In this document: positions 5,722 through 31,977 of the stretch, piece after piece
Layout of the letters: every line of letters starts with the position of its first letter
Numbering within the stretch: the first letter of the stretch is position 1
DNA from: Opitutales bacterium
Lineage (GTDB): Bacteria > Verrucomicrobiota > Verrucomicrobiia > Opitutales > PNEW01
Direction of reading: 5' to 3'
Assembly (NCBI GenBank): GCA_965219535.1
Contig: CBDCNV010000002.1
Span: forward strand, 1,260,001-1,292,000
Length of the DNA stretch: 32,000 nucleotides
The notes under the pieces: generated by a model
Told to the model about the DNA's origin: nothing
Databases searched by the model: none
Seen by the model: the letters and a program-made list of their open reading frames with translations, nothing else
Made by a program: the position numbers and the translations under genes

Positions 5722-5749
5722 GACTTTACCTTTTTTGCCGATGGATAAA

Positions 5750-5774
5750 GTCAAAATGTCAAAAAGTCAAAAGG
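5750..5774 (-). repeat. GTCAAAAG octamer array (x3)
   Basis: gtcaaaatgtcaaaaagtcaaaagg. It reads TTTTGAC in the sense of the minus-strand gene that starts at 5721. Confidence 0.95.
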
Positions 5775-5775
5775 G

Positions 5776-5820
5776 ATATGCGTGTATGCGTCAATGCGTG
5801 TATGTGATGATGCGGTAATG
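5776..5820. repeat. ATGCGNNN octamer array
   Basis: atatgcgtgtatgcgtcaatgcgtgtatgtgatgatgcggtaatg. Confidence 0.9.
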
Positions 5821-5830
5821 TTAAGTATTA

Positions 5831-7038: not shown

Positions 7039-7129
7039 ACGTTATTTTGTTTGATAGAAGTTTCAGGATTATACCCATTTCCGATTGTAGGATATATCAG
7101 TCACAATGACGAAGGGATGGGTGTTTATA

Positions 7130-7197
7130 CGCGTTCCACCATTGCTTATATAATAATTCTTGTTTCTTACGCTATGCATCGTGGATCACTCCGGCTT
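7130..7197. repeat. ~68-bp 3'-flank module, copy 1
   Basis: cgcgttccaccattgcttatataataattcttgtttcttacgctatgcatcgtggatcactccggctt. It is about 80 percent identical to 17788-17855. Both copies lie just 3' of minus-strand genes. Confidence 0.85.
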
Positions 7198-7358
7198 GGA
7201 AGATGTCGTTCCGCGATTGCGGAACTCGGAACTGGTCTTCCGGCTATTCGGTTTGGAAGATGTCATTCCGCGATTGCGGAACTCGGAACTGGTCTTCCGG
7301 CTATTCGGTTTGGAAGATGTCATTCCGCGATTGCGGAACTCGGAATTGGTAATACGGC
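7189..7358. repeat. 57-bp tandem repeat, ~3 copies
   Basis: Units start at 7198, 7255 and 7312 (ggaagatgtcNttccgcgattgcggaactcggaactggtcttccggctattcggttt). Each unit holds a ttccgc-gatt-gcggaa hairpin. The array overlaps the 3' end of CDS 7301-8149. Confidence 0.95.
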
Positions 7359-8149
7359 GCTGGGTCAAATCCGGGATATCTCTTTACCATTCCCTCGATG
7401 AATAGCTTGGTCCACAGCGGGTCACCGGGCGGCGGGAAACCCAACAGTTCTCGCTGGCGCGGTGTAGCCTCAACCATAAAGCGACACATCGCTTCGTTGC
7501 TGGCGCCGCTTTTATAAGTGAAGGTGCGACCCCCGTCCCAGGGCCGGTCTTTGCGGGAATAACAAACATGCATGACCGGGCGATGGCCTCGATGTGAGGT
7601 GAATTCGGAAGCAGCGTGCCGAGTGAATATACTGTAGAGACAGACTGAGCCGCCAGGTACGATCATCGGCACCGCTTCCTCGTCCGGTCGGCCATTAGGC
7701 ACCATACGGATCGGTGCCAAATCCCGCTCCACATCATCGAAGCAATAGAAAAAGTCCAGGTGCATATAGTCGTCGGGCTCGATGATTGGTCCCAGTGTAT
7801 TATTACTGTAGTCGATGTGAAATTTCGTATTGTATTCCTCGCCAGCGTATTTCATTCCCAGATGGCCTTCGCAGAGGCGGATTTCGCGGGTGCCGAAAAC
7901 GCGCTCAGCCGCATCAACCAGATCCGGATGGACGGTGACGTGATTGAGACCGGAGTGGTCCCAGGGGAAGAGTCGATGTTTCGGCGTATTGTTCTGTCGT
8001 TTTTGAGATTCGAATACGTCGAAAGGCGGGGCGAATAAAGTAAAGATTCCTTGGAGCGCAGCTTCCCGCTCATCTTTAGTCAGGAAGTTTTCGATAATAA
8101 GGAACCCCTGCTTTTTGTAAGTGGCGAGTTCCGCGTCAGTGATGTGCAT
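7301..8149 (-). CDS. phytanoyl-CoA dioxygenase (PhyH) family Fe(II)/2-oxoglutarate oxygenase
   Basis: 282 aa. The N-terminus MHITDAELATYKKQGFLIIENFL is typical of PhyH. It has an H-x-D (HIDYS) motif and a distal His. GAGGAG lies upstream of the ATG. The last ~17 codons and the stop are encoded by the 57-bp tandem repeat. Confidence 0.8.
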   Translation of the reverse strand: MHITDAELATYKKQGFLIIENFLTKDEREAALQGIFTLFAPPFDVFESQKRQNNTPKHRLFPWDHSGLNHVTVHPDLVDAAERVFGTREIRLCEGHLGMKYAGEEYNTKFHIDYSNNTLGPIIEPDDYMHLDFFYCFDDVERDLAPIRMVPNGRPDEEAVPMIVPGGSVCLYSIFTRHAASEFTSHRGHRPVMHVCYSRKDRPWDGGRTFTYKSGASNEAMCRFMVEATPRQRELLGFPPPGDPLWTKLFIEGMVKRYPGFDPAPYYQFRVPQSRNDIFQTE

Positions 8150-11576: not shown

Positions 11577-11589
11577 ACGACGTTCCTCT

Positions 11590-11620
11590 TTTTGACCTTT
11601 TGACGTTTTGACATTTTAAC
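11590..11620 (+). repeat. TTTTGAC octamer array (x3-4)
   Basis: tttttgaccttttgacgttttgacattttaac. It is antisense relative to both flanking minus-strand genes. Confidence 0.95.
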
Positions 11621-11625
11621 TACAA

Positions 11626-13596: not shown

Positions 13597-13669
13597 TCTA
13601 TTAGTCCCCTTAATTTATCTGTTTAACTGCCATCTCAAAGAAAAGCTTTTATATGAGGAGGTATAAACA

Positions 13670-14836
13670 CTAAGCAACAGATTTTGGAACAATATCTCCC
13701 ATCGCGGCGGCGAGGGGGTCGGTCGAAACTTTCTCACGGGGCGGTGGTAGAGGCGTGTCGTAGGCATAGTCGGGGTCTTCAAGTTGTTTCTTCCAGATTT
13801 CTCTTATCTCTTTCCATGACCCCACGAGGGATCGGGTTTTTGGCATATCTTCGGCGACGACTTTGTGTAGTTTCTTGAGATTATAACAGGGCACCGCTGC
13901 GTACATGTGGTGTTCTATATGCCAGTTCATACGCCAGTAGAGGAAACTGGAAAGGGGGTCGAGGGTGATCGTCCGCGTGCACTTTCTGAAATCATTAACA
14001 TTGCTTTGCAGGCCGATGTGCATCGGTGTTCCGACAAAATAATGGAGCGCATTACCGAAGAAAATATGTCCGGAAATCAGGACGGCCAGTATCGGCTGAC
14101 CCATTGCTATGCAGGTGCCTATTACCAACATGTGAAACGCCAAAACAAACCGCGCCCAATTGACGGCTTTCTTACGCGCTTCCGGTTGCTCTGCGAAAAG
14201 TTCAGCTCCCCAGTGAGTCATGGGATTGTCGAACTTGTTTGATGCGATCTCGATGCATTTACTGAACGTGGGTATAATCCCCCTCGACATAAAGCCGCCC
14301 GTAATATTGAGGGTAAACAACTGGAGGAGGTAAAGGAAGCGTAGCGTGGGTTGGTAGGGCAGCACGACCTCCCGATCCGCTTCTATATGTAGCGTGAATC
14401 GATGATGGTAGCTGTGGCTCATTTGGTAGAGATGGAAGTGCTTCCATGAGAGCAGGCAGAATACGCGGAGAAAGAATTCATTGAGCCACTTAGTCTTAAA
14501 TGAGTTGCCATGGCACAGCTCATGTTCAGCCGCGCCAAAAAAGACACCCACGGTCCCGTGTACAAACAGAGCGACAAAAAAGCCGATCCACAACAGCTGG
14601 GTGAAGAGAACGTAAGTAGCTGTGCCGGTGATCGCCCATAGTCCCAGGTGACCCAGGGCTTGAAAAAGGCCGTGAAAATCACTGCGCTTTGAGAGGGCGC
14701 GGAGCTGTTTGGGTTCGATGTAACAGCGGTACCATTTAGGTTTTAAGGTCCGACTGATTTGGGACAGCGGTACTTTATTGATCTTGTTAATATTGCTTTC
14801 TTTGATTTGCGTTAGATTTTCTGGGATCTGTTGCAT
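13670..14836 (-). CDS. membrane fatty-acid desaturase family protein
   Basis: 388 aa. It has the three histidine boxes HELCHG, HSYHH and HIEHH with hydrophobic spans. A strong AAGGAGG lies 5 nt before the ATG. Confidence 0.85.
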   Translation of the reverse strand: MQQIPENLTQIKESNINKINKVPLSQISRTLKPKWYRCYIEPKQLRALSKRSDFHGLFQALGHLGLWAITGTATYVLFTQLLWIGFFVALFVHGTVGVFFGAAEHELCHGNSFKTKWLNEFFLRVFCLLSWKHFHLYQMSHSYHHRFTLHIEADREVVLPYQPTLRFLYLLQLFTLNITGGFMSRGIIPTFSKCIEIASNKFDNPMTHWGAELFAEQPEARKKAVNWARFVLAFHMLVIGTCIAMGQPILAVLISGHIFFGNALHYFVGTPMHIGLQSNVNDFRKCTRTITLDPLSSFLYWRMNWHIEHHMYAAVPCYNLKKLHKVVAEDMPKTRSLVGSWKEIREIWKKQLEDPDYAYDTPLPPPREKVSTDPLAAAMGDIVPKSVA

Positions 14837-16492: not shown

Positions 16493-16601
16493 CCGGTCAT
16501 TTTCAGAGCTGTGCACAATAATGATTCCCGTAAGTTAGCTAAACTTAAGATTAGTTTACCCAGCAAGTCTTTTAACGAATGTCAGTTTTTCCCACAATAA
16601 A

Positions 16602-16829
16602 GGCAACACGCTAATATGTGTATACGCGATAATGCGTGTATGCGGTCATGCGGAGCATCTACTGGAGGGACAAGTGGTGCCTGTCGGCCATAGCCCAACG
16701 GGCGTCGGATGATCGTGTCTGTGAATATTCAACAAGAGTATTAAGTGTTAGGTGGAGCGGGCTGTCCCTAGCACGCTTCTTAATTAATCAATAATTATTA
16801 CAAAAGCGGTAGGGACACCGCGTTCCACC
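16602..16829 (+). repeat. composite direct repeat, left copy (ATGCG array + GGAGGGAC hairpin + GGTGGA hairpin)
   Basis: 16602-16727 matches 17571-17696 with 4 mismatches in 126 bp. 16728-16829 is a more diverged homologue of 17697-17797. It is followed by the terminus-like tcgcgatgacaaagg (16831-16845). Confidence 0.95.
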
Positions 16830-16989
16830 TTCGCGATGACAAAGGAAAAAGATTTTTGACCTTCTACCATTCTCATCGTACACACGCATGTTTGAGTATA
16901 CACATATTACTATCCTTTCAGCAGAACGACCTAATTCAGCCCCTGGCTAAGCGGTTGACTAGCTGCTGCGTGTCCTCCCCAATGACTGG

Positions 16990-17547
16990 TTAGAGTAAAT
17001 GGAATGATTCTTCTATCTTGTCACCTTTGAGGAATATTTCCTCAACGTCCTCCGGTATATTCGCGCGGCGAACTACTACAGGCCACAGCTCCAATGGAGG
17101 TTTGGTGGTCAGTATTGTGTCTAGCCGTACTATTTCGAGATCATTGCATATGTACGTTCCCATGTCGCACTGAGTGCCTCCGCAAGCTCGACGATAGTGA
17201 CACTCTCTGAACGAGCAAGTACGACCGAGATACTCCCCTTGCTCATTGCACAGGAATATGTCAGCTCCAGAGCTTTTACTTTGCGCACTACCCTTGAGTC
17301 TCCGGCCGAGCTTGGCCAGTGAAGCGATGTTGGCGATGGAAGTCACAGTCACCAACAGATCAGCATCTTTGGGCTTCCACTTTTTGGTGAGCAACGAACC
17401 GATCATCGCAATCCGGACAATCCCCTGCATTTGGCTTGCGTCGCAGACAAATTTGCGGACTCCCTTTAGTAGAAACGAACGAAGCGGTTCCTGGGAGGAC
17501 GTCTCCATACAGCCTAGCATTAGATTAGCCAACAAGCTTTTTAGCAA
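16990..17547 (-). CDS. orphan Pol-beta-type nucleotidyltransferase-like protein with Cys-rich C-terminal half
   Basis: 185-aa ORF. MIGSLLTKKWKPKDADLLV resembles the G-S...D-x-D minimal nucleotidyltransferase motif, followed by C-x5-C-x5-C-x4-C-x7-C. The start is uncertain (TTG 17547, ATG 17520 or ATG 17508). The ORF is bracketed by composite direct repeats. Confidence 0.45.
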   Translation of the reverse strand: MLKSLLANLMLGCMETSSQEPLRSFLLKGVRKFVCDASQMQGIVRIAMIGSLLTKKWKPKDADLLVTVTSIANIASLAKLGRRLKGSAQSKSSGADIFLCNEQGEYLGRTCSFRECHYRRACGGTQCDMGTYICNDLEIVRLDTILTTKPPLELWPVVVRRANIPEDVEEIFLKGDKIEESFHLL

Positions 17548-17570
17548 GTCTCAGTTATTACAGCGAGAAT

Positions 17571-17797
17571 GGCAACTCGCTAATATGCGTATACGCGATA
17601 ATGCGTGTATGCGGTCATGCGGAGCATCTAATGGAGGGACAAGTGGTGCCTGTCGGCCATAGCCCAACGGGCGTCGGATGATCGCGTCTGTGAATACGCA
17701 GTAGCGGATTTTTATTTTAGGTGGGGTGGGCTGTCTCAGCACGCTTAATAATTATTCAAATATTACTACAAACGCGCTAGAGACAGCACGTTCCACC
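17571..17797 (+). repeat. composite direct repeat, right copy
   Basis: See the left copy; the offset is 969 bp. Weaker similarity extends upstream to agcaagtct (17543 versus 16562), overlapping the 5' end of ORF 16990-17547. Confidence 0.95.
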
Positions 17798-17855
17798 ATT
17801 GCTTATGTAATTATTTTCGTTTCTTACATCATGCATCGTGTATCAATCCGGCTTT
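17788..17855. repeat. ~68-bp 3'-flank module, copy 2
   Basis: cacgttccaccattgcttatgtaattattttcgtttcttacatcatgcatcgtgtatcaatccggcttt, just 3' of CDS 17880-19601. Confidence 0.85.
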
Positions 17856-19644: not shown

Positions 19645-19702
19645 GCATATGCGTATACGCATATGCGATAATGCGGTAATGTGTGTATGCGATGATGCGG
19701 TA
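19645..19702. repeat. ATGCG-type array beginning with a 22-bp perfect palindrome
   Basis: gcatatgcgtatacgcatatgc (19645-19666) is a perfect palindrome, followed by gataatgcggtaatgtgtgtatgcgatgatgcggtac. Confidence 0.95.
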
Positions 19703-20307: not shown

Positions 20308-20382
20308 TGTTTTGAAATGATTTAGCAGACTATCTCGCTCTCTCGCTGCCTCCTTAAATTCTTCTTCTGTTTTGATCGAATA

Positions 20383-20415
20383 GTCAAAAGGTCAAAAAGT
20401 CAAAAGGTCAAAAGG
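20383..20415 (-). repeat. GTCAAAAG octamer array (x4)
   Basis: gtcaaaaggtcaaaaagtcaaaaggtcaaaagg. It reads TTTTGAC in the sense of the PNPOx-like gene and overlaps the open upstream frame of that gene. Confidence 0.95.
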
Positions 20416-20416
20416 A

Positions 20417-20463
20417 AATGCGTAAATGCGATTATGCGAATAAGCGAAGATGCGGTAATGCGT
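20417..20463. repeat. ATGCGNNN octamer array
   Basis: aatgcgtaaatgcgattatgcgaataagcgaagatgcggtaatgcgt. Confidence 0.9.
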
Positions 20464-20486
20464 ACCGAGGGTGAACCCCGACATCC
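20462..20486 (+). repeat. 25-bp direct repeat, copy 1
   Basis: gtaccgagggtgaaccccgacatcc, 23/25 identical to 20767-20791. Confidence 0.9.
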
Positions 20487-20546: not shown

Positions 20547-20741
20547 CTTGTCATTGCGAAGGAGGCGAAGCCGACTGCGGCTACCGAGCGCCGCGACATC
20601 TTCCATTTCCAGGCGACTGACGATACGCTGTCCTATGTTCTCCTGGAATGGAAGATGTCGGACTACGTCCTCGGTAGCCACGACTGACAAGCAACCTTCC
20701 CCCGTCGCACGAGGCTATGGAGGACAGGCGCGATGACAAAG
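20547..20741. repeat. GTCATTGCG / CGCGATGACAAAG-bounded palindromic element (~195 bp)
   Basis: The termini cttgtcattgcg and cgcgatgacaaag are inverted. The inner arms ctaccgagcgccgcgacatcttccatttccagg (20581-20612) and cctggaatggaagatgtcggactacgtcctcggtag (20642-20677) are also inverted. Confidence 0.9.
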
Positions 20742-20766
20742 GGAATCTATCGATAATCTGCTATAT

Positions 20767-22121: not shown

Positions 22122-22123
22122 TA

Positions 22124-22155
22124 GTCAAAAGGTCAAAAAGTCAAAAGGTCAAAAG
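22124..22155 (-). repeat. GTCAAAAG octamer array (x4)
   Basis: gtcaaaaggtcaaaaagtcaaaaggtcaaaag, immediately 3' of the plus-strand DadA-like gene. Confidence 0.95.
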
Positions 22156-22192
22156 GGGAGGAGCGCTGACGCGATAATACGAAGTATCTTCT

Positions 22193-22344
22193 GGAGGGAC
22201 GCGTGGAGCCTGTCGGCCATAGCCTAACGGGCGTCGGGTGATCGCGTCCGTGAACATGCCTTGTGTAAAGTTCTCCATTTACGGCTACGACGGAGCGTGA
22301 CCTTACATACCTTCGGACTATGGCCGATAGACGCGATGACAAAG
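22193..22344. repeat. composite palindromic element (GGAGGGAC hairpin + CCTGTCGGCCATAGCC arm ... GGACTATGGCCGATAG arm + CGCGATGACAAAG terminus)
   Basis: 22193-22255 is homologous to 16664-16726 and 17633-17695. cctgtcggccatagcc (22209-22224) is inverted relative to ggactatggccgatag (22315-22330). The element is followed by ccgaattccgcaatcggaaatcggaaattg (22354-22383). Confidence 0.9.
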
Positions 22345-23346: not shown

Positions 23347-23355
23347 GGGCAACTA

Positions 23356-23388
23356 GTCAAAAAGTCAAAAGGTCAAAAAGTCAAAAGG
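23356..23388 (-). repeat. GTCAAAAG octamer array (x4)
   Basis: gtcaaaaagtcaaaaggtcaaaaagtcaaaagg. It reads TTTTGAC in the sense of the gluconolactonase-like gene and lies 9 nt from its ATG. Confidence 0.95.
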
Positions 23389-23392
23389 TTTT

Positions 23393-23529: not shown

Positions 23530-23571
23530 TTCCTGGTATAATCTTACACATTCACGACCATTATCAGTCGT

Positions 23572-23609
23572 CGCCCGGTGGGCTATGACCGACAGGCACT
23601 GCGTGGCCC
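23572..23609 (-). repeat. reverse-oriented CCTGTCGG(C/T)CATAGCC module
   Basis: cgcccggtgggctatgaccgacaggcactgcgtggccc is the reverse complement of the module found inside the long GGAGGGAC hairpins. Confidence 0.85.
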
Positions 23610-23651
23610 TAAGAATTACTTGTATCTTGCACCCTGCATCTCGCGTCCTCT

Positions 23652-23763
23652 ATTGTCATTGCGAAGGAGGCGATGCCGACTGCGGCAATCCAGGGGGGCT
23701 GATATTACACTTCCGACATTCCCCTGGATCGCCACGGCTGACAGCAGCCTCGCGATGACAAAT
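23652..23763. repeat. GTCATTGCG / CGCGATGACAAA-bounded palindromic element (~112 bp)
   Basis: attgtcattgcgaagg is inverted relative to cctcgcgatgacaaat. The inner ggcaatccagggg is inverted relative to cccctggatcgcc. Confidence 0.9.
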
Positions 23764-23834
23764 TATATCAGACAACATATTAATACATTCGATGTATCTA
23801 GAAATAAGATATAGACATACGAGGAGAAGCGGAA

Positions 23835-25349: not shown

Positions 25350-25425
25350 GGTGGAACGCGCTGTCCCCTAGCGCGTTTCAAAATGTCATAAGGGAAGAAG
25401 CGTGCTAGGGACAGCCCGCTCCACC
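25350..25425 (-). repeat. GGTGGA...TCCACC long hairpin, inverted orientation relative to 16751-16829
   Basis: The right arm cgtgctagggacagcccgctccacc is the exact reverse complement of 16751-16775. The left arm is ggtggaacgcgctgtcccctagcgcg. The element lies between convergent genes and is followed by a reverse TTAGG array (25431-25460). Confidence 0.95.
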
Positions 25426-25482
25426 GCTTACCCTAACACTTAACACTTAAAACTTAACACTGATCGATAAATCACCAATCAC

Positions 25483-27702
25483 TTAAAACGTTACTTCTTC
25501 AAAGTTAAGGGTGATCGTTTCTCCAACCTCGTTTTCGAAGGTAGCAGCAACGCTCTGTGTCGGTTGGGGCGTGTTGTCGGATTTGAAGTTGTTCTGCGAA
25601 ATCAAGGTCTCAATTCCGGATGTCGTCGAATCACTCTCCGCGACGACGACTGCGGCCCCGTTCGTCTGCAACAAATCTCCTCCCGTGATCCTCACCCCGG
25701 GGTTGCCGGCTGGCACAGTGAAAGAGCCTTCTCCAAACAAAAGGTACGGAACTGCATCCCCACTGGCATCGATGTCGCCTAAGGTTAAGCGAACCGCGAT
25801 CGGTACCCCGCGCGCGTCGACACCGGTCTTGCCGGTGCTTCCACTGAAGACGGTGTTCGATAACTGCACTCCTCCCATTCCTGTGGAATTAACGACTTCT
25901 ACGAGGGCCACGTCCGCTTGTGCGTCATAGACCTGTCCCTCGGGGAAGAGGGCCTGGTTAAACGCGTTGATCCTGCCCACGGTGAAGATACTGAAGAAGG
26001 TATTGGCATCCGCGCCGTCGATGACGACGCTCGGCTTGCCCGTCACGTACTCAACGGCCTGGTTGTAGCGTGGTGGGATGGCCGGGGGCAGGAAGGTAGC
26101 TGGGTCCAGGGTTACGGTAAAGGTACCATTACCTGAAAACTCTACCTGCACAATATCCTCGTTTTCGTCCATGAAGGAGACGCGTGTGATCTGTCCCGGT
26201 TTGGCCTGGAGTTGGACGGACTCTCCGGTAAGTAAAATCTGGTCGAAGACGTTACCGTTGGCATGCTGAATGTTTTCCCCGGCGATATCGCCCGAGCCGT
26301 CAAGCACGAGAGGGATAGCCGCGGCTGCGATCGTAATAACCGCAGTATCGCTGTCCGCGGTTCCTCCAGCGTTAGTAATCTGTACCCAAAAGCTTGTGCT
26401 CGCGGTGAGCGCGCCCGTGTCTAACGTGCCGCTGGTAGCGCCGGCGACGGGACTGGCGGTGTCGCCGCTGTTGCCGGTAAACCACTGGTAAGTGAGATCG
26501 TCACCACTGGCGGTAACGGACAAGCTGGCTGAAGCGCCCGAAGCGACCTCCTGGCTCGCGGGCTGGGTAGTGATGGACGGGGCATCCGCGGGTGGGGGTC
26601 CTTCGGAGCCCGTGCCCGGTGCTCCGATGGGCGTAAACCCAAAATCGTCAACTGCAGTACGACTGAAAAGAGCGTTTATATCCGGGTCATCTTTCATCAC
26701 AAGTCTGCTAATGCCGCCCGGGGCTCCCAATTCATCCGCATTAATCGTTATGAAACTAGGTTTGAATTCAGGGGTAATATCCCCCTCTAAATTCCTTAAG
26801 GTAACAAGCAAGTTATCGTTCGTATCATAGACTTCGATTGAGCCGTCAGGATCGGAGGTACTTGATGTCACCACTGCGGCTCCAAAAAGATCAATTTCAT
26901 AAGCTGGCGTTTCAAAAGTGATGGTCGCTTCTTCTCCATTAAATATTGCATAAGAATGAGGGAACGAGCGTACTTGTTCGAAGGCACCTGAGACAAATAC
27001 GATAGACCCCCCTTCAAAAGTAGCCGTATTAGGCGACGTCCCAATGACTAAGGGCTCAGATAATCCATCCCCTACGCCAAATTCACTAAAAGTGCTGTAA
27101 ACCGTGTTGTTCGAGGGAAATTCCGTCAGGGTGAACCCCAAGTCGTCGAGGACGAGTTTTCCGGTTACATTAAAAATCTTCACTTCTATAATGCCGCTGA
27201 TGAAATTAAAATCATCTTCATCCTGGAAAAATCCGCTGTCGGCGACAAAGCTGTATAAGGGGGGATTTGCGCCGGGACTGATATTTGAAGGCAGCCCATC
27301 CACAACACCATCGTCACCTATTACCGTTATCGCCATACGACCTGGGCCCGCTAAATTTGATTCATTGATTATTCCCCTGAACTCCATCCTGCCAGCGCCC
27401 GTTGTTTCTCCAGCATAAAATTCGATAAATTGAATACCTCTTTCCGAGATGATCTTTCCCTCCTGTCCGGGCCCGAGGGTTATCGCTTTTGTTCCTGAAT
27501 GTAAAAGCGCGGGATCCTCTAATGTCTCAATCGTGAAGCCGACCAGCTTAATCCGATTGGGCTCTTCACCGATAAAAAATTCACCTTCACCGCTGATGTC
27601 TTCAAAATCTGTGAATACCTCCAGGTCTTGAGGCAGGGCGATAAGAAGAATCGGGTTTAAAATTGAGAGTAAAACGAGCGTAAGTGCATTTTTAAAAAAC
27701 AT
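25483..27702 (-). CDS. large secreted/surface protein with Ig-like domain
   Basis: 739 aa. It has an N-terminal signal (MFFKNALTLVLLSILNPILLIALP). A central ITTQPASQEV...LTYQWF...TADSDTAVITI segment is Ig (I-set)-like. The composition is Gly/Thr/Ser-rich. The internal plus-strand ORFs are shadows. Confidence 0.7.
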   Translation of the reverse strand: MFFKNALTLVLLSILNPILLIALPQDLEVFTDFEDISGEGEFFIGEEPNRIKLVGFTIETLEDPALLHSGTKAITLGPGQEGKIISERGIQFIEFYAGETTGAGRMEFRGIINESNLAGPGRMAITVIGDDGVVDGLPSNISPGANPPLYSFVADSGFFQDEDDFNFISGIIEVKIFNVTGKLVLDDLGFTLTEFPSNNTVYSTFSEFGVGDGLSEPLVIGTSPNTATFEGGSIVFVSGAFEQVRSFPHSYAIFNGEEATITFETPAYEIDLFGAAVVTSSTSDPDGSIEVYDTNDNLLVTLRNLEGDITPEFKPSFITINADELGAPGGISRLVMKDDPDINALFSRTAVDDFGFTPIGAPGTGSEGPPPADAPSITTQPASQEVASGASASLSVTASGDDLTYQWFTGNSGDTASPVAGATSGTLDTGALTASTSFWVQITNAGGTADSDTAVITIAAAAIPLVLDGSGDIAGENIQHANGNVFDQILLTGESVQLQAKPGQITRVSFMDENEDIVQVEFSGNGTFTVTLDPATFLPPAIPPRYNQAVEYVTGKPSVVIDGADANTFFSIFTVGRINAFNQALFPEGQVYDAQADVALVEVVNSTGMGGVQLSNTVFSGSTGKTGVDARGVPIAVRLTLGDIDASGDAVPYLLFGEGSFTVPAGNPGVRITGGDLLQTNGAAVVVAESDSTTSGIETLISQNNFKSDNTPQPTQSVAATFENEVGETITLNFEEVTF

Positions 27703-28876: not shown

Positions 28877-28926
28877 ATATGCGATAACGCGTGTAAGCGA
28901 AAACGAGTAGATGCGGACTTGCGTCC
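28877..28926. repeat. degenerate ATGCG-type array
   Basis: atatgcgataacgcgtgtaagcgaaaacgagtagatgcggacttgcgtcc. Confidence 0.8.
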
Positions 28927-31595: not shown

Positions 31596-31604
31596 TTTAT
31601 AATT

Positions 31605-31645
31605 GTATACGCGATTAAGCGTGAACGCGGGTATGCGGAATTAAG
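31605..31645. repeat. degenerate ATGCG-type array
   Basis: gtatacgcgattaagcgtgaacgcgggtatgcggaattaag, upstream of the symporter-fusion gene. Confidence 0.8.
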
Positions 31646-31682
31646 AGTAGAATGTCAAAAGACATTTCTATGACATTGTGCA

Positions 31683-31710
31683 GGTGAAACGCGGTCGACT
31701 CCGCCTCCAC
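31683..31710. repeat. miniature GGTGRA...CCAC hairpin
   Basis: ggtgaaacgcgg-tcgact-ccgcctccac keeps the outer arms of the GGTGGA hairpin family without the interior. Confidence 0.6.
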
Positions 31711-31711
31711 T

Positions 31712-31956
31712 CTTGTCATTGCGAGGGAGGTATTCAACCGATCGTGGCAATCCAGGCGAATAATCATTGTACTTACGAATACTTAGTCTACACTAAGATC
31801 TTTCCAATGAGGTTCATCTCCTCAATCAAGTTAATTGTTTAATTGAGAGTAAGCCCTAACATCCAGAGACCTGCATCACTCAACTGACATCCTCCTGGAA
31901 TGTAAGATGTCGCTACGCTCGGTAGCCGCGTCGCGTTGCTCCTCGCAATGACAAAC
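31712..31956. repeat. GTCATTGCGAGG / CCTCGCAATGAC-bounded palindromic element (~245 bp)
   Basis: The termini are a perfect 12-bp inverted pair (31715-31726 and 31941-31952). The element contains ggcaatccagg and cctggaatgtaagatgtcgctacgctcggtagcc, as element 20547-20741 does. Confidence 0.9.
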
Positions 31957-31977
31957 GAAGGGAATCGCTGGTGCGCG

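Follow-up and report, generated by a model that had tools for sequence, protein, structure and literature searches.

Why does the same inverted repeat, opening with GGTGG and closing with CCACC, stand in three separate spacers of the 32,000-nt stretch of DNA analysed here (the window)? A sequence-only reading had described these repeats as a family of long hairpins, each pairing an A-type with a B-type arm across an unrelated, AT-rich loop, and had argued for selection on their secondary structure, be it as a terminator, an RNA stability or processing element, or a recombinase target.

Three inverted dimers of short stem-loop units

The three full copies lie where they had been placed, at 16751-16829, 17720-17797 and, in the opposite orientation, 25350-25425 (dimers 1 to 3), and their gene context is also as described. 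Copies 1 and 2 are between minus-strand genes (an ADH-like gene and a 176-aa ORF for copy 1, the 176-aa ORF and a TPP enzyme gene for copy 2), and copy 3 is between a RidA-like gene and a convergent Ig-domain gene. Metabolic genes are present among the window ORFs, and no transposase was found among them. The arm pattern matches the window seven times against 0.48 expected, a count reached in none of 100 shuffles; six of the seven matches are the six arms of the three dimers, and the seventh is a chance match. A covariance model of the unit (R1) recovers exactly six arms in the window, all within the three inverted dimers.

Each arm is itself palindromic, so that a full copy consists of two inverted stem-loop units with GGTGG/CCACC outermost. 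The unit is 27 nt long and comprises the tag GGTGG, an 8-bp stem (for example AACGCGCT), a loop GTCCCY (GTCCCT in this example) and a return stem, AGCGCGTT. Stems are 8-9 bp long. Across 40 units, tag positions G1, G2, T3 and G4 are invariant, and G5 is kept in at least 90%. The B unit has a perfect stem, and the A unit often carries a G.A mismatch at stem position 5.

In dimer 1, the A unit (16751-16777, plus strand) consists of GGTGG, stem AGCGGGCT, loop GTCCCT and stem AGCACGCT, with the G.A mismatch at stem position 5; it scores 42.3 bits with R1 (E 6.5e-07) and is identical to the A unit of dimer 3. The AT-rich linker that follows (16778-16802) has an edge beside the A unit, CTTCTT, that is conserved in window-type copies (alignment A2). 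The B unit (16803-16829, minus strand) consists of GGTGG, AACGCGGT, GTCCCT and ACCGC-TT, scores 29.1 bits (E 2.5e-04) and carries the G-C variant at the covarying pair 12-21. Dimer 2 begins with a degenerate A unit (17720-17745, plus strand; GGTGGGGTGGGCTGTCTCAGCACGC) that has four changes from the consensus, a loop C-to-T among them, and a low score of 12.7 bits (E 0.41). Its AT-rich linker (17746-17770, TTAATAATTATTCAAATATTACTAC, from the sequence and alignment A2) leads into a B unit (17771-17797, minus strand) with loop GTCTCT that scores 32.3 bits (E 6e-05); the reported change from GTCCCT to GTCTC is present on both arms of this copy. Dimer 3 starts with its B unit (25350-25377, plus strand; 36.4 bits, E 9.4e-06), 8 nt past the stop codon of the RidA-like gene, and ends with its A unit (25399-25425, minus strand; 42.3 bits). 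The linker between them (25378-25398, TCAAAATGTCATAAGGGAAGA) is similar to octamer arrays of the GTCAAAAG type that occur at other places in the window: 25378-25400 matches at 78%, and 25378-25398 is 95% complementary to 1344-1364 and 1667-1687.

The distinction between A and B arms is real: unaltered arms of both types are found in an Opitutales MAG (L016), at loci of marine metagenomes and in another three dimers just left of the window on its own contig. The A-arm identity between copy 1 and the reverse complement of copy 3 extends to 31 nt, beyond the 25 claimed. The loops are not unrelated, since the edges of the central part (TTTG... and ...AAGAAGCG) are conserved among window-type copies. 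The two lesser copies fared less well. What had been called a half copy at 7108-7140 is a partial copy, but of just ~12 nt of the B arm: an outer-end remnant of a B unit on the minus strand (7128-7140, ACGCGTTCCACC on the plus strand), recognisable chiefly through a 66-nt flank that it has in common with copy 2 (7132-7197 against 17789-17854, 86%). The miniature copy at 31683-31710 (GGTGAAACGCGG..CCGCCTCCAC) is weak; a match to CGCGTTCCACC with one mismatch in an 11-mer makes it a possible remnant of an internally deleted dimer, and it has no unit-model match.

Covariation lies within each arm

Intra-arm pairing was assessed in 30 distinct partner arms from metagenomes, for which the 3′ half of the stem had played no part in selection. 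The intra-arm helix is paired in 87.9% of cells, compared with 68.3% in shuffles, and double changes occur at seven of the eight stem pairs. The covariation score of 0.443 exceeds the shuffled value of 0.132 (0 of 500 shuffles reach it), and controls with the helix slid out of register give 0.03-0.13. In about one third of these arms, stem position 5 is not base-paired; this is the G.A mismatch that the window A arm also has. The partner units use at least ten different stem sequences (for example ATCGGCTT/AAGCCGAT, ATCGCCTT/AAGGCGAT, AGCGCATT/AATGCGCT and AGCGGCGA/TCGCCGCT), some with longer stems or other loops; the hairpin beside CCACC is nevertheless kept. Linkers in related dimers range from ~0 to ~90 nt and often contain hairpins of their own.

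The two B-arm positions that had been written as N, and that the search pattern left free, are a covarying intra-arm base pair: they form a Watson-Crick pair in 112 of 115 cases, against 75.7 expected (T-A 90, C-G 17, G-C 5). In an alignment of 12 window-type dimers (A2), which was used for both fold models, B-arm pair 12-22 is CG in nine copies and GC in three (window dimer 1, L141 and L236). A model of two separate hairpins leaves 93.7% of positions paired in these 12 dimers, and a model of one long hairpin, 89.8%. We conclude that the structure supported by covariation is two local stem-loops, each with a 5-nt tag, and not one long stem.

The long hairpin and a possible role in RNA

The main proposal of the earlier reading was that the long hairpin is selected as such in RNA, as a terminator, a 3′-end stabiliser or a processing site. 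The fold itself is readily predicted. When both strands are folded, the long hairpin is the predicted minimum-energy structure of the window copies on each, for RNA (-29 to -45 kcal/mol, z -4.9 to -7.5) as for DNA (-15 to -23 kcal/mol), a result that favours the proposal, as does the double change in dimer 2, which preserves the long stem. However, that double change is the only one in the long stem among the 12 window-type copies, and 47 of 500 shuffles contain as many; the covariation test thus adds nothing to the copy from which the claim had been made. Columns 7-75 of the long stem never pair, columns 10-72 pair in one copy of 12, and the three copies in which pair 12-22 is switched each lose two inter-arm pairs through compensation within the arm. 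In the wider family, a mean of 18 of 27 inter-arm pairs can form; where the stems of the two units are unrelated, GGTGG/CCACC alone can pair between arms. The long-hairpin fold is a by-product of two similar units lying inverted. Selection on structure had been rightly perceived, but covariation places the constraint inside each arm rather than on the long stem. The two-hairpin model does not by itself account for the paired loop change of dimer 2, which may stem from conversion within the doublet, from selection for the long fold, or from exposed loop cytosines having mutated in parallel.

The position of the dimers relative to genes also bears on this proposal. Every copy in the window and the majority of the window-type copies are found downstream of one or more genes, and none of 11 copies lies between divergent genes, a placement that speaks for the proposal. 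The orientation of the dimers is nevertheless mixed: in the broad set, ten are co-directional with the flanking genes, eight antisense, seven between convergent and six between divergent genes, and among window-type copies about five to six are sense, three antisense and three convergent. An orientation bias indicative of RNA function was looked for in both sets and not found. Note that crude ORF calling in G+C-rich loci placed 24 elements "inside ORFs", an assignment that is unreliable.

A terminator scan gave one match, the B-unit stem of dimer 1 followed by TTTTG, which is terminator-like on the transcribed strand; shuffles likewise give one. The long hairpin, with a central part of 21-25 nt and ~17-29 nt unpaired in predicted folds, does not combine the G+C-rich stem, short loop and directly following U-tract of an intrinsic terminator, and no U-tract or T-run follows it at any of the three window dimers. 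Rfam gave no match on the window elements at the gathering threshold, on 16 related loci, or in a sensitive scan of 16520-16990. REP dimers are described as affecting mRNA in other bacteria (PMC3733652), and an effect on the host at gene 3′ ends, for example on mRNA stability, would be secondary. Given the lack of a U-tract, the occurrence in both orientations and an orthologous spacer of a close relative that has no dimers (see below), a terminator or other oriented RNA role is not borne out, and we consider it improbable that the long RNA hairpin is selected as such.

Distribution and turnover of the dimers

A first scan of genome contigs used an arm pattern that was too loose and returned mostly chance matches in high-G+C genomes; among the matches listed, full elements were present in seven Verrucomicrobiota MAGs or loci. 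One of these, the Opitutales chromosome OY829953.1 (L016), has the A and B arms of the window together with the same octamer arrays. A stricter B-arm scan of metagenomes gave at least 120 loci, and 91 of the 124 B-arm matches listed have a partner ending in CCACC 55-145 nt downstream. Judged by these matches, GGTGG-tagged elements are common and widely spread in metagenomes from soil and sea, and the family keeps its A/B heterodimer design over large evolutionary distances, from marine to soil Verrucomicrobiota. The host genome of the window is probably Verrucomicrobia-like and marine.

On the source contig itself, the 8.6 kb left of the window contain another three dimers as well as two units standing singly, as judged by model R1. 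In total, ~50 kb of this contig contain six dimers, two single units and two remnants, all intergenic. A relative with a 90% identical TPP enzyme (L246) has a TPP-ADH spacer of 145 nt, compared with 1363 nt and two dimers in the window. We found no dimer, no 176-aa ORF and no octamer array in this relative's spacer; since a whole gene and other repeats are missing along with the dimers, the difference does not amount to the clean insertion or loss of a dimer. Neither a precise empty site nor an intermediate of transposition was seen. A repeat block upstream is common to dimers 1 and 2, which may therefore not be independent insertions.

RAYT transposase genes lie beside the units in relatives

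All ORFs of the ~120 loci listed (0.58 Mb), which had been selected by the B-arm pattern alone, were searched with E. coli YafM as the query. Seven RAYT-like ORFs were found. All seven match Pfam Y1_Tnp, and all seven match the NCBIfam model NF047646, 'REP-associated tyrosine transposase' (E 4e-29 to 4e-19), two of them above its curated cutoff. GGTGG units flank five of the seven on either side, and at a sixth (L213) a dimer adjoins one end. The seventh (L221) is flanked by a different class of REP. RAYT genes stand between or beside the units in L243, L235, L179, L145/L185, L174 and Actomonas aquatica (L242).

The arrangement is closest at L243, where the RAYT gene exactly fills the space from a B unit, 8 nt ahead of its ATG, to an inverted A unit just past its stop codon. 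This site, an aldehyde dehydrogenase gene, the RAYT gene (P0025) and a ThrRS gene, is the same in the six places shown (L243 and five others), out of 19 contigs that carry the protein. At L235, a B unit of the window type precedes the RAYT start codon by 22 nt, and an A unit is at the end of the gene; this RAYT has 114 homologues, many of which JGI calls RayT and several of which NCBI places in Verrucomicrobia. A homologue in Actomonas aquatica (Opitutaceae) is accompanied by G+C-rich dimers built in the same way, three of them upstream of the gene and one downstream. Compared as a check for fixed left and right ends, the orientation of the gene relative to the A and B units in soil-type loci differs from that in L243 and L235. 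Classical IS200 transposases in L123, L131 and L139 are 2-6.5 kb from units and were not taken as linked.

The L221 contig, from soil, carries GGTGG dimers, and at 13600-14684 its RAYT gene is flanked by the other REP class (GGAGTGCGATGCGTCCTCGCATCGC), which suggests that a single genome has two REP/RAYT systems.

For the window's own genome, the window and ~18 kb of additional flank, ~50 kb in all, yielded no RAYT gene; the RAYT link is therefore one seen in relatives. Among the roles first suggested, the recombinase target named the right kind of candidate, and the evidence points specifically to a RAYT, a HUH/tyrosine transposase. The units are imperfect palindromes of 27 nt, within the 20-40 nt usual for REPs, with a conserved stem-loop and a 5′-foot tetranucleotide, in the GTGG variant described for Opitutus terrae. 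Two such units lie inverted around a short spacer and are predicted to fold into one hairpin, as in a REPIN, and in relatives a RAYT gene is flanked by the same units in inverted orientation. Since GTGG-tagged REPs are known in O. terrae and RAYT genes lie beside the units in relatives, the elements belong to a known kind, the REP heterodimer. We conclude that they are very probably paired REP palindromes, that is, REPIN- or BIME-like heterodimers of the GTAG superfamily with a GTGG tag, presumably spread by a RAYT.

Two other kinds of element were weighed against REP heterodimers. The dimers could be MITEs of a classical DDE-type insertion sequence, with the GGTGGA... arms acting as TIRs bound as double-stranded DNA. 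The arms do form 25-nt imperfect inverted repeats at the ends of a 76-79-bp element, and other small TIR-bounded elements occur in the same genome. However, none of the three dimers shows a target-site duplication, the covariation inside the arms is that of hairpins and is not required of TIRs, the ends are unrelated in the wider family save for the 5-nt tag, and the associated genes encode Y1/HUH rather than DDE transposases, so that a MITE origin is very improbable. Sites for a site-specific recombinase, such as integron attC sites, which are likewise imperfect palindromes recognised as folded single strands, came into view through a GTTAGGT before dimer 1 and through a small ORF (16990-17520) that lies between same-orientation dimers and direct repeats, like a cassette, and that L246 does not have, but this idea was dropped as scarcely credible because the ORFs of the window and its flanks include no integrase, the conserved ends are GGTGG/CCACC and not RYYYAAC/GTTRRRY cores, and the neighbouring genes are mixed in orientation and mostly have no dimer; elsewhere, moreover, the family is flanked by RAYT genes.

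Other repeats around the REP dimers

Several other repeats occur near the dimers. Almost every intergenic spacer of the window contains a tandem array with a period of 7-8 nt, of the types (GTCAAAAG)n, (ATGCGNNN)n, TAACACNT and GAACCCY (1347-1384, 2641-2674, 5740-5824, 11588-11622, 16614-16654, 17583-17623, 19647-19701, 20376-20472, 22122-22160, 23354-23390, 25434-25489, 28877-28925 and 31599-31647). These arrays often abut start or stop codons, in both orientations, and the same arrays are present in L016. A ~60-nt repeat family (AGGGAC..GCCTGTCGGCCATAGCCCAACGGGCGTCGG..GTGAA) has copies at 16665-16727, 17634-17696 and 22194-22256 and an inverted copy at 23550-23612; it is predicted to form an extended hairpin with a few compensated pairs, and has no Rfam match. 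Two of its copies lie 23 nt from dimers 1 and 2. Within 16550-17735, an octamer array, a 60-nt element and a REP dimer together make up a 969-bp direct-repeat unit that brackets the 176-aa ORF (16990-17520). This ORF has a weak DUF6932 match, and both it and the bracketing repeats are absent from the TPP-ADH spacer of L246.

Small elements at 20559-20745, 23653-23767 and 31712-31960 have inverted ends, TTGTCATTGCG...CGCGATGACAA, and internal ...CGGCAATCCAG and GGCTATGG motifs. One such end (16832-16848) is 2 nt from dimer 1, and another adjoins the miniature copy. A unit of 57 nt is present in three tandem copies, 84-100% identical, at 7192-7362, overlapping the 3′ end of a PhyH-like gene (7301-8149). 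A perfect tandem duplication with 323-bp spacing (1156-1455 and 1479-1778) extends across the start of an M15-peptidase-like gene. The ENA contig L245, which otherwise matches the window, has a single copy of this segment, and hence either is a near-identical rather than an identical assembly or reveals a polymorphic duplication at 1156-1778.

In several genomes, A as well as B units carry an inserted module of 30-40 nt (CCTGNCNGCCATAGCCTTGGCGANGG..., CCTGNCNGCCATAGCCTTGGCGANGGTTGG), always at the same position in the REP loop, G^TCCCT. It occurs in L245 (4201-4257 and 6921-6977) and in A units of L187, L227 and L238. To the left of the window, two B units, one single and one in a dimer, have a 30-nt loop insertion, and the paralogous spacers L245 5256-5330 and 6873-6977 differ by the loop module. 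The core of the module resembles the ~60-nt family. A combined reading, that the A and B units are functionally different ends and that the module is a mobile element parasitising the single-stranded REP loop, is on present evidence unlikely; if the module were mobile, one miniature element would specifically parasitise the single-stranded loop of another.

Discussion

The REP heterodimer reading explains a conspicuous repeat with no new mechanism, and corrects its conserved structure to two local stem-loops with a tag. By analogy with known systems, a RAYT, as a single-copy HUH/Y1 transposase, would bind the folded single-stranded unit with its 5′ tag and would cut and rejoin DNA, and dimers would spread slowly through intergenic DNA, decaying into remnants. 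The REP/RAYT picture is extended here to uncultured Verrucomicrobiota. For annotation, the dimers are best masked as mobile repeats, and not labelled as terminators or small RNAs; the unit covariance model built here recovers the units cleanly.

In the IS200/IS605 family (IS608, ISDra2), a Y1 HUH transposase recognises imperfect single-stranded DNA hairpins beside a short guide sequence. A similar feature here is the gene placed between two different hairpin ends in L243 and L235. Unlike in that family, the RAYT model fits the proteins better than the IS200 model does, there is no TnpB accessory gene, and the hairpins are dispersed in many gene-free copies.

In E. coli, binding by TnpA-REP requires a 5′ tetranucleotide and a mismatch in the stem (Messing et al. 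2012, PMC3479197). A comparable feature here is the G.A mismatch that A units have at stem position 5, and E. coli BIMEs (Y and Z REPs) resemble the window dimers in that two types of REP alternate in inverted orientation. The tag, GTGG rather than GTAG, sets the window units apart from those of E. coli, and stems and loops are unrelated in sequence.

Bertels and Rainey (2011, PMC3116915), who defined REPINs in Pseudomonas fluorescens SBW25, set a stable hairpin against a two-hairpin 'clover' fold and proposed the latter as the form recognised by the RAYT. Like the window dimers, SBW25 REPINs consist of two inverted REPs and a spacer, with one long hairpin predicted, and in SBW25, as in relatives of the window, the RAYT gene is flanked by the same REPs. 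SBW25 singlets are seen as decayed doublets, and single units and remnants occur here too. The SBW25 elements are, however, near-symmetric homodimers in which compensatory changes across the long hairpin were reported to be common (PMC3116915), whereas the window dimers are A/B heterodimers with covariation for the local stems only.

Another close comparison is with the GTAG-tagged REPs of Opitutus terrae (Di Nocera et al. 2013, PMC3733652), one family of which, GTAG-20, is described there as having a tag that is mostly GTGG. That account also describes head-to-head dimers, frequently heterodimers, whose two units fold each by itself or jointly into one large stem-loop. Both hosts probably belong to one phylum and order (Verrucomicrobiota, Opitutales), but the source of the window is an uncultured, AT-richer lineage (48% G+C) that is probably marine. 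Compared by description, GTAG-20 and the window units are alike in being short stem-loops with a terminal GTGG in place of GTAG; both sets also pair head to head, at a spacing of 20-100 bp and with outward-lying tags, often as heterodimers, and both are associated with Y1 transposase genes. To that description the present analysis adds the division of the units into types A and B, together with the G.A mismatch conserved in the A unit.
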